Shown one piece after another: positions 50,192 to 52,543 of a stretch of DNA of 64,000 nucleotides. Every line of letters begins with the position of its first letter. Position 1 is the first letter of the stretch. Under the pieces are notes generated by a model. It was not told where the DNA came from. It was given only the letters and a program-made list of their open reading frames with translations, and ran no database searches. The stretch lies in assembly GCF_003334785.1 (NCBI RefSeq), contig NZ_QOWV01000003.1; one strand, given 5' to 3'. The stretch is from Escherichia coli (GTDB taxonomy: Bacteria; Pseudomonadota; Gammaproteobacteria; Enterobacterales; Enterobacteriaceae). The position numbers and the translations under genes are program-made.

Positions 50192-50737
50192 ATGAGTGCC
50201 AATGAAAACAACCTGATTTGGATCGATCTTGAGATGACCGGTCTGGATCCCGAGCGCGATCGCATTATTGAGATTGCCACGCTGGTGACCGATGCCAACC
50301 TGAATATTCTGGCAGAAGGGCCGACCATTGCAGTACACCAGTCTGATGAACAGCTGGCGCTGATGGATGACTGGAACGTGCGCACCCATACCGCCAGCGG
50401 GCTGGTAGAGCGCGTGAAAGCGAGCACGATGGGCGATCGGGAAGCTGAACTGGCAACGCTCGAATTTTTAAAACAGTGGGTGCCTGCGGGAAAATCGCCG
50501 ATTTGCGGTAACAGCATCGGTCAGGACCGTCGTTTCCTGTTTAAATACATGCCGGAGCTGGAAGCCTACTTCCACTACCGTTATCTCGATGTCAGCACCC
50601 TGAAAGAGCTGGCGCGCCGCTGGAAGCCGGAAATTCTGGATGGTTTTACCAAGCAGGGGACGCATCAGGCGATGGATGATATCCGTGAATCGGTGGCGGA
50701 GCTGGCTTACTACCGCGAGCATTTTATCAAGCTGTAA
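50192..50737 (+). CDS. orn: oligoribonuclease
   Basis: ORF 50048..50737; start moved to [29 protein letters not shown] (181 aa); DEDDh exonuclease. Confidence 0.92.
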
Positions 50738-50947
50738 AATTTTTCCTGGTCACGTAAGCGCCGGAATCCACTTGCGGCGGCGTGATTTTGACGCTAAATT
50801 GAACGTCTTGCTGATAATTTCAGCACTTGAGATAAAAACGCAAAAAAAACTTTTTTGGGGGGTTGCAGAGGGAAAGATTTCTCGTATAATGCGCCTCCCG
50901 TAACGACGCAGAAATGCGAAAATTACGAAAGCAAAATTAAGTAGTAC

Positions 50948-51023
<76 letters not shown>

Positions 51024-51058
51024 AAATTTGAAAGTGCTGTAAGGCACAGACCACCCAA

Positions 51059-51134
<76 letters not shown>

Positions 51135-51149
51135 AATTCTTCTCTCAAT

Positions 51150-51403
51150 AAAATATCCACAGCGACGCGATGCGTTATTGCTGGTTTTTGTTGTCTCTGA
51201 CAAACTCTTGTAAACAGAGTTATCCACAGCCTCAGGCTGTAATCTTAATTTCAAAGAAACTTCGCACGGTGAATAGTATTTTTTTAACCTATTGATAGAT
51301 AAGTTAAAAATTAAGATTCCGTTTTGTCGAGTCGATCACTTGACGATTTTATTCGTCTTGAATTGCAATGCGTTTTTATTTTTATTCACAAGCTGTGGAT
51401 GAA
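51150..51403. promoter_or_regulatory. datA: DnaA-box cluster with IHF-like site (datA-like DnaA titration locus)
   Basis: 9-mers ATATCCACA (51153-51161), TTATCCACA (51220-51228), TTATTCACA (51382-51390) and inverted TCATCCACA (51394-51402); IHF-like TATCAATAGGTTA on the minus strand near 51286-51298. Confidence 0.6.
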
Positions 51404-52541
51404 TCAGGCGTCACGCGGTAACCCTTTTTCAATCACCCGAACCAGACGCTGTTTTTTCGGCAATTGCACTTCGACTATGCACGCATTTCGTCTCTCTATT
51501 TGCTGCGCAATCGCCCACGCTATGTGCTCATCGAGAAGTGGGTGCTCACCTTTACGACTTTCCAGCGCTGTCAAAATCGTTTCATCCCAAGGGGCATTGC
51601 CTAATGCTACGGCGATATTACGCAGCCAACGCAGGTGACCAATACGACGAATCGCCGATCCTTCCGTGACTTTTAAAAACTTCTCTTCGCTCCAGGCGAA
51701 TAACTCAATGAGTTCCGGTGCGTGTAGCGGCTTACGCGGGCTGAAATCCTCTTCTGTGGTGAGTTGTGAATAGCGATTCCACGGGCAGATAAGCTGGCAG
51801 TCATCGCAACCGTAAATACGGTTTCCCATTAACGGTCGCAACTCTTCCGGGATCGCCCCTTCAAGTTCGATGGTGAGATAAGAGATACAGCGGCGAGCAT
51901 CGACGGTATATGGCTCGACGATGGCACCGGTCGGGCAAATCGTCATACAGGCCACGCATTTGCCGCATCCTTCCTCGACTGGTTGATCCACGGGCAGCGG
52001 AATATCGACCAGCAATTCGCCTAAAAAGAAGAACGAACCGGCCTCGCGATTGAGGATAAGTGAGTGCTTACCTGTCCAGCCGAGCCCAGCTTTTTCAGCT
52101 AACGGGCGCTCGAGAATAGGCGCAGAATCGACAAACGGTCTAAAATTCAGCGAAACACAATGTTGCTGAATCATCTCGCCCAGCTTTTTGAGTCGGTTGC
52201 GCAGAAGTTTGTGATAGTCACGGCCCAGCGCATAACGGCTAACATAGCCGAGTTTGGGGTTTTTCAGCGTGCTGGCAAATGCGGCGTTAGCAGGAAGGTA
52301 ATTCATCCGCACGCTGATCACGCGCAGCGTACCGGGCAATAACTCATGAGGGCGAGCGCGCAGCATACCGTGACGTGCCATCCAGTCCATTTCGCCGTGG
52401 TATTGTTTGTCCAGCCATGCTTGCAGTTTGGGCTCGGACTCGCTGAGATCGGTATCGGTAATACCTACCTGCTGAAAGCCCAGTTCCAGCCCCCACTGTT
52501 TAATTTTTTGCGCTAACTGATTGAGATCGAGGGGCTCTGAC

Positions 52542-52543
<2 letters not shown>
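51404..52543 (-). CDS. queG: epoxyqueuosine reductase (cobalamin/Fe-S)
   Basis: ORF 51404..52651; start moved to MSEPLDLNQLAQKIKQWGLELGFQQVG (379 aa); two 4Fe-4S ferredoxin motifs (CGKCVACMTICP, CDDCQLICP). Confidence 0.9.

Follow-up and report, generated by a model that had tools for sequence, protein, structure and literature searches.

The interval between the tRNA-Gly operon and queG

The element described here lies in a 64-kb stretch of E. coli DNA (the window, by which we mean this whole stretch) in which the neighbouring genes are arranged as rsgA, orn, tRNA-Gly, tRNA-Gly, yjeV, queG (convergent), nnr and tsaE. A first-pass annotation had reported a cluster of four DnaA-box 9-mers with an IHF-consensus match among them and had proposed that this cluster is datA. 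Our analysis showed that the flanks are as it had claimed, with two tRNA-Gly(GCC) genes on the + strand and a convergent queG on the - strand. All four 9-mers were found at the positions given and are boxes 1, 2, 3 and 4 of datA, boxes 3 and 4 being separated by 3 bp, and the IHF-consensus match is a single exact match located between the two perfect boxes (Table 1). Box 7, an essential box located beside box 2, was absent from the first-pass annotation. The region is AT-rich, with a GC content of 31-34% at positions 51200-51400.

Table 1. Features of the datA region, with positions in the 64-kb window and mean majority fractions in the Enterobacterales alignment
Feature	Position	Strand	Mean majority fraction	Remarks
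Two tRNA-Gly(GCC) genes	50948-51023, 51059-51134	+		ARAGORN, Rfam tRNA and annotation; local form of the glyV-X-Y operon
datA DnaA box 1, ATATCCACA	51153-51161	+	0.72	8/9, one misfit; conserved mainly within Enterobacteriaceae
TglyV-X-Y, terminator/attenuator of the tRNA-Gly operon	51157-51193	+		Hairpin 51157-51184, then UUUUUGUUG
datA DnaA box 7, TTGTAAACA (putative position)	51208-51216	+	0.82	Two misfits; 3 bp upstream of box 2; the 3' ACA and the GA after it are invariant in 39 sequences
datA DnaA box 2, TTATCCACA	51220-51228	+	1.00	9/9, perfect consensus; all 9 positions invariant; 38/38 Enterobacterales and 12 Vibrionaceae loci
datA IHF-binding site (IBS), TATCAATAGGTTA	51285-51297	-	0.75	Exact match to the IHF consensus WATCAANNNNTTR; TTGA core invariant across Enterobacterales
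Conserved block CGATCACTTGA (CGATCACTTG)	51333-51343			Dam site GATC at 51334-51337; between IBS and box 3
Conserved TTGAWT (TTGAAT in the window)	51358-51363			Between IBS and box 3
yjeV, annotated 17-codon ORF	51368-51421	+		Shares sequence with boxes 3 and 4 and with the 3' end/stop of queG
Conserved T-run	51372-51381			Directly before box 3
datA DnaA box 3, TTATTCACA	51382-51390	+	0.93	Fits TTATNCACA; orientation as boxes 7 and 2; 8/9 positions invariant, only the N position varies
datA DnaA box 4, TCATCCACA	51394-51402	-	0.53	8/9, one misfit, inverted; 3 bp past box 3; poorly conserved outside Enterobacteriaceae
queG (epoxyqueuosine reductase)	51404-52543	-		Annotation; convergent with the tRNA operon
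Two one-misfit boxes inside queG	51765-51773, 52051-52059	-		Candidates for outlying boxes of the datA fragment (~1 kb) as first described
Spacers			about 0.5	Unalignable

The boxes are numbered after reviews and the 2024 Kasho paper, and box 7 was putatively placed from these reviews and from the fit to a length of 183 bp. Counted from box 7 to the last base of box 3, the segment (51208-51390) measures exactly 183 bp, the length of the published minimal datA (PMC5742627), and the published coordinates do not place the element elsewhere. Its extension to box 4 (51208-51402) measures 195 bp, compared with about 200 bp for the published minimal region that includes box 4. Boxes 2 and 3 are 162 bp apart, start to start, and the single IHF site between them is identical to the 13-mer printed as TATCAATAGGTTA for the datA IBS of MG1655 by Frimodt-Moller et al. 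2015 (PMC4585315, supplementary Fig. S11).

The main activity of datA is the IHF-dependent hydrolysis of DnaA-ATP (DDAH) and titration is secondary (PMC5742627; PMC5835720), so that the term "DnaA-titrating" used in the first-pass annotation belongs to the older model, although some direct titration is real. Box 2 has a high affinity and is essential (PMC5742627), as is the low-affinity box 7, which has the same orientation as the adjacent box 2 (PMC5835720; PMC5742627), and box 3 and the IBS are also essential datA elements. Box 1 is dispensable for DDAH and overlaps the glyV-X-Y terminator (PMC10950094), and box 4 has a stimulatory effect on DDAH in vitro and is non-essential in vivo (PMC5742627; PMC10380432). 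This published description fits the anatomy of the window without remainder.

The comparison of positions 51125-51440 with MG1655 (NC_000913.3, 4,392,649-4,392,964) showed 316 identical positions out of 316 (100%), the segment being the glyY-queG interval of K-12; the expected location of datA next to glyVXY was thus borne out. Minimal datA is placed in the interval flanked by glyV-X-Y and queG (PMC10950094; PMC10380432), at 4.39 Mb (PMC5742627), and in published work the locus, which shares its replichore with DARS1, keeps its distance of about 10% of the chromosome from oriC across 59 E. coli genomes. K-12 datA, the DDAH element at 94.7 min, shares with the window boxes 1, 7, 2, 3 and 4, the IBS, the overlap with the terminator and the flanking genes, and the only difference is in the upstream context, where the strain of the window has two tRNA-Gly(GCC) genes instead of the three of K-12 (glyV, glyX and glyY).

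We then estimated how unusual the clustering of the boxes is, using 1000 dinucleotide-preserving shuffles of the 64-kb window as the null of the scan statistic. A pattern search found exact matches to TTATNCACA at boxes 2 and 3 only in the whole window, and two exact boxes within 170 bp were obtained in 1.4% of the shuffles. When one mismatch was allowed, the number of matches in the window was 50, which equals the shuffle average, and datA was the only place where four such boxes occur within 250 bp; a cluster of at least four boxes under the same limits was present somewhere in 3.9% of the shuffled sequences. The density had been called far above chance; the clustering is indeed unusual, but only moderately so by motif count, and the claim was overstated.

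The element between the tRNA-Gly operon and queG is almost certainly datA, the locus on the E. coli chromosome that inactivates DnaA, and we regard this identity as settled because of the 100% identity to the K-12 datA interval and the deep phylogenetic conservation described below, and not because of the density of motifs. Nothing in the sequence contradicts it. This identity was already known: the recognition of datA in an unannotated window was correct and adds nothing to the knowledge of E. coli.

The retained spacer between the tRNA-Gly genes is identical to the glyX-glyY spacer of K-12 and one repeat unit of 112 bp is missing, as expected from recombination between identical repeats. The distance from the promoter to datA is about 112 bp shorter in the strain of the window, and this might affect timing, because read-through from the promoter of the tRNA-Gly operon regulates the binding of IHF at datA. 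The segment 51135-51200, which contains the terminator, folds as RNA with -14.3 kcal/mol (z = -2.3) and the terminator hairpin overlaps box 1, in agreement with the published overlap of TglyV-X-Y and box 1 (PMC10950094). According to the same study, datA is crossed by read-through originating at the promoter of glyV-X-Y, which affects the timing of IHF binding and is damped by the tRNA terminator and by DnaA bound at box 2, and the timely release of IHF from datA needs a further factor (PMC10950094).

The earlier statement that the cluster is not a promoter for any flanking gene holds, yet datA is transcribed by read-through and contains the putative yjeV promoter. A sigma-70 scan of positions 50700-51700 detected no promoter-like site, the known glyV-X-Y and the putative yjeV promoters being likewise undetected. 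The Rfam search returned only the two tRNAs and a sub-threshold match to YrlA (Y RNA-like) at 50973-51111 (+ strand), which scored 40.3 bits (gathering score, 69), covers both tRNAs and is most likely an artefact due to the tRNA-like module of the YrlA family. A GC-rich hairpin with an AT-rich tail (ACAGCC-TCA-GGCTGT, 51226-51240, + strand) overlaps the 3' end of box 2; it was flagged by the terminator scan and has a stable fold, and the alignment shows no conservation of this hairpin beyond Escherichia.

The annotated yjeV is probably an annotation artefact and not a real gene. Its ATG is missing in the aligned sequences of several Enterobacter, Pseudocitrobacter and related Enterobacteriaceae, so that the apparent conservation of the ORF is better explained by boxes 3 and 4 and by the 3' end of queG.

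Conservation of datA in E. coli and the Enterobacterales, and a related box cluster in the Vibrionaceae

Besides the identity, the position and the motif anatomy of datA, we analyzed its conservation. A query of 601 bp from the window was matched in 5426 of 5426 complete E. coli genomes, and so was the 269-bp datA intergenic fragment, which is present in one copy in nearly all of them. In two divergent strains, the changes are located in the spacers, at an N position of the IBS or consist of the loss of 5 bp between box 1 and the terminator, and boxes 1, 7, 2, 3 and 4 are unchanged in both, which agrees with the published study of 59 genomes.

Several matches depart from this pattern. In the complete genome of E. 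coli P276M (NZ_CP044293.1; locus L003, 3225-3290), the match ends at the equivalent of window position 51359 and the stretch of boxes 3 and 4 reads TTATTTTGG...TTTGGATGA in place of TTATTCACA...TGTGGATGA, both boxes being degraded; P276M may have a naturally defective datA, or its assembly may be in error. Of the 5429 places that match the datA fragment, two are on records labelled as plasmids, and three chromosomal matches have an identity of 80-90% only.

The DNA downstream of queG was examined at queG loci from 80 species. The Enterobacterales loci (L006-L042, L050 and L064) include Citrobacter, Enterobacter, Kluyvera, Cedecea, Serratia, Yersinia, Rahnella and Pantoea, as well as Pectobacterium, Dickeya, Brenneria, Hafnia, Budvicia, Moellerella, Photorhabdus and Edwardsiella, and majority fractions were calculated per position over 39 aligned sequences (Table 1). 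Both TTATCCACA and TTATNCACA were found in the same orientation at 38 of 38 Enterobacterales loci, and the start-to-start distance between boxes 2 and 3 varied from 159 to 164 bp in the 38 species, with a mode of 161 (162 in E. coli). The architecture was kept in Pectobacterium, Brenneria, Budvicia, Moellerella and Photorhabdus, where there is no tRNA gene within 900 bp. The elements published as essential are the most deeply conserved and the dispensable ones are not, a pattern that gives independent support to the published model of datA.

The strict WATCAANNNNTTR pattern is lacking at many Enterobacteriaceae loci. We rejected the reading that the IHF site is absent from these loci, since the TAA....TTGA core is retained in the alignment and the strict pattern is therefore too narrow.

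Three blocks that are not named datA elements (51333-51343, 51358-51363 and 51372-51381) have majority fractions of about 0.8-0.9 per position, compared with about 0.5 for the spacers. A promoter reading of the conserved TTGAC and TTGAAT blocks was rejected, the search by hand for -35/-10 pairs having given poor -10 hexamers only, and no convincing promoter or DnaA-box reading was found for the conserved blocks between the IBS and box 3.

The Vibrionaceae loci (L045, L048, L049, L051, L052, L058-L060, L062, L065, L067 and L081; Vibrio, Photobacterium, Grimontia and Salinivibrio) have a DnaA-box cluster at the site downstream of queG in 12 cases out of 12. This cluster is located about 50-400 bp downstream of queG, is longer overall, with a span of about 275 bp, and starts with the 15-mer of boxes 7 and 2, ACAGANTTATCCACA, followed 10 bp later by an inverted box. 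Next comes a TAACT...TTG block that resembles an IHF site, and GATC sites and the pair TTAAACACA (- strand) and TTTTCCACA (+ strand) follow. The 15-mer occurs once per locus at 37 of 38 Enterobacterales and 12 of 12 Vibrionaceae queG loci and once in the 64-kb window (0.03 expected), and it was absent from the sampled queG loci of Shewanella, Alteromonadales, Aeromonas, Idiomarina and others; the cluster was likewise absent from the loci of these four named groups. A limited literature search found no description of a Vibrio datA, which does not by itself establish novelty.

These comparisons lead us to a tentative and rather doubtful proposal, namely that the core of datA goes further back, and contains more, than is described in the E. 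coli-centred literature consulted: ACAGANTTATCCACA, an IHF-like site and downstream boxes may form a common core at the 3' end of queG in the Enterobacterales and, in a rearranged form, in the Vibrionaceae, and the additional blocks that lie from the IBS to box 3 (CGATCACTTG with its Dam GATC, TTGAWT and the T-run) may be functional sites. If this is true, the blocks could bind a factor that times the binding and release of IHF, or could couple this timing to hemimethylation after passage of the fork.

Mode of action and alternative readings

Protein binding, ATP hydrolysis and timing are taken from the literature, in which they were measured on the identical K-12 sequence, and would be expected to apply to the window as follows. 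ATP-DnaA would bind on one side to boxes 7 and 2, which have the same orientation, and on the opposite side to box 3, with box 4 assisting. After initiation, IHF would occupy the IBS between the boxes and bend the DNA sharply, so that DnaA at boxes 7 and 2 would meet DnaA at box 3 and the bound ATP would be hydrolysed. The head-to-tail DnaA oligomer depends on Arg285, Arg281 and Leu290, and hydrolysis proceeds via the sensor-2 Arg334, after which ADP-DnaA dissociates (PMC5742627); since ADP-DnaA falls off, datA would act catalytically, and some DnaA would also be titrated by it. HU is no substitute for IHF, and negative supercoiling stabilises IHF binding (PMC5742627; PMC10380432). The dose of datA would be doubled just after initiation because its position near oriC leads to early duplication (PMC5742627), and the occupancy by IHF would be timed partly by the tRNA-Gly read-through, which the tRNA terminator and DnaA bound at box 2 would weaken.

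A primarily transcriptional role, in which a roadblock of DnaA and IHF ends the read-through from the tRNA-Gly operon and shields queG from antisense transcription, with an incidental effect on replication control, would account for the terminator that overlaps box 1 and for the second small hairpin that overlaps box 2. However, the arrangement of box 2, IBS and box 3 is kept downstream of queG in the genera without any tRNA gene over a distance of 900 bp, transcription is not needed for DDAH in vitro and the deletion of datA alters initiation (PMC5742627). The published direction is also the opposite one, transcription regulating datA, and a datA relocated near oriC shows a near wild-type behaviour in published work. 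We consider this reading very unlikely as the primary role of the element; a roadblock effect is real but secondary (PMC10950094). The original titration model, in which datA is a purely passive sink for DnaA with no catalytic role, is very unlikely indeed. It draws on the discovery of datA as an exceptionally strong DnaA-binding fragment and on the observation that deletions outside boxes 1-4 and point mutations of box 2 or the IBS only reduce titration (PMC5835720). The clusters of Bacillus subtilis and Streptomyces coelicolor, like datA, are non-origin chromosomal DnaA boxes that repress untimely initiation (PMC5742627). These clusters are non-homologous to datA in sequence and position and are thought to titrate, no IHF-dependent hydrolysis having been described for them. 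Point mutations of the IBS, box 2 or box 7 have the phenotype of a datA deletion, and reconstituted complexes of datA and IHF have been reported to hydrolyse DnaA-ATP catalytically in vitro, with no need for RIDA; DDAH explains much of the apparent titration (PMC5742627; PMC5835720). The strict orientation and spacing of the boxes (159-164 bp) also fit a defined looped complex better than a passive sink.

A DnaA-box cluster and an IHF site are shared with oriC and DARS2, and the DNA is AT-rich (31-34% GC); this could suggest an element akin to an origin or to DARS, with a role in activating DnaA or in unwinding DNA, which we find exceedingly improbable. The left region of oriC (R1-IBS-R5M) resembles datA in having an IHF site between boxes of the same orientation and an Arg285-dependent head-to-tail oligomer of ATP-DnaA (PMC5742627). 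However, its outcome is unwinding while that of datA is ATP hydrolysis; the distance between the boxes of datA is much longer, no 13-mer duplex-unwinding element was matched (GATCTNTTNTTTT, up to 2 mismatches, within 51100-51450) and HU cannot replace IHF at datA (PMC5742627). The hydrolysis of DnaA-ATP is in turn not seen at oriC (PMC10380432). DARS2, like datA, is a non-coding DnaA-box cluster whose activity needs timed IHF binding and negative supercoiling (PMC5742627), but it releases ADP from ADP-DnaA to yield ATP-DnaA and needs Fis, whereas datA promotes the hydrolysis of ATP-DnaA. DARS and datA differ in phenotype: the deletion of datA raises ATP-DnaA and the number of origins per mass, the opposite of the published effect of a DARS deletion (Table 2 of the published work). 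As for a chance cluster of motifs in an AT-rich intergenic spacer, the share of shuffled 64-kb windows that contain at least four boxes within 250 bp (given above) leaves some room for it on motif counts, but its probability is virtually nil: the boxes and the core of the IBS are invariant across the Enterobacterales next to unalignable spacers, the 15-mer of boxes 7 and 2 recurs once per queG locus at the Enterobacterales and Vibrionaceae loci counted above, and the sequence is the same as that of an element characterised by experiment. It is this conservation that excludes chance.

Place of datA in the control of initiation

The DDAH system of datA is one of the four systems, with RIDA, DARS1/2 and SeqA, that limit E. 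coli to one initiation per cell cycle. Its physiological contribution is modest: the deletion of datA in the wild type increases ATP-DnaA by only a few percent (PMC5835720) and, according to PMC11331064, cells without all extrinsic regulators can behave nearly normally. The comparative result obtained here mirrors the functional hierarchy of the datA elements, and the conserved blocks between the IBS and box 3 and the Vibrionaceae cluster could guide work on the timing of IHF binding, a contribution of modest value.
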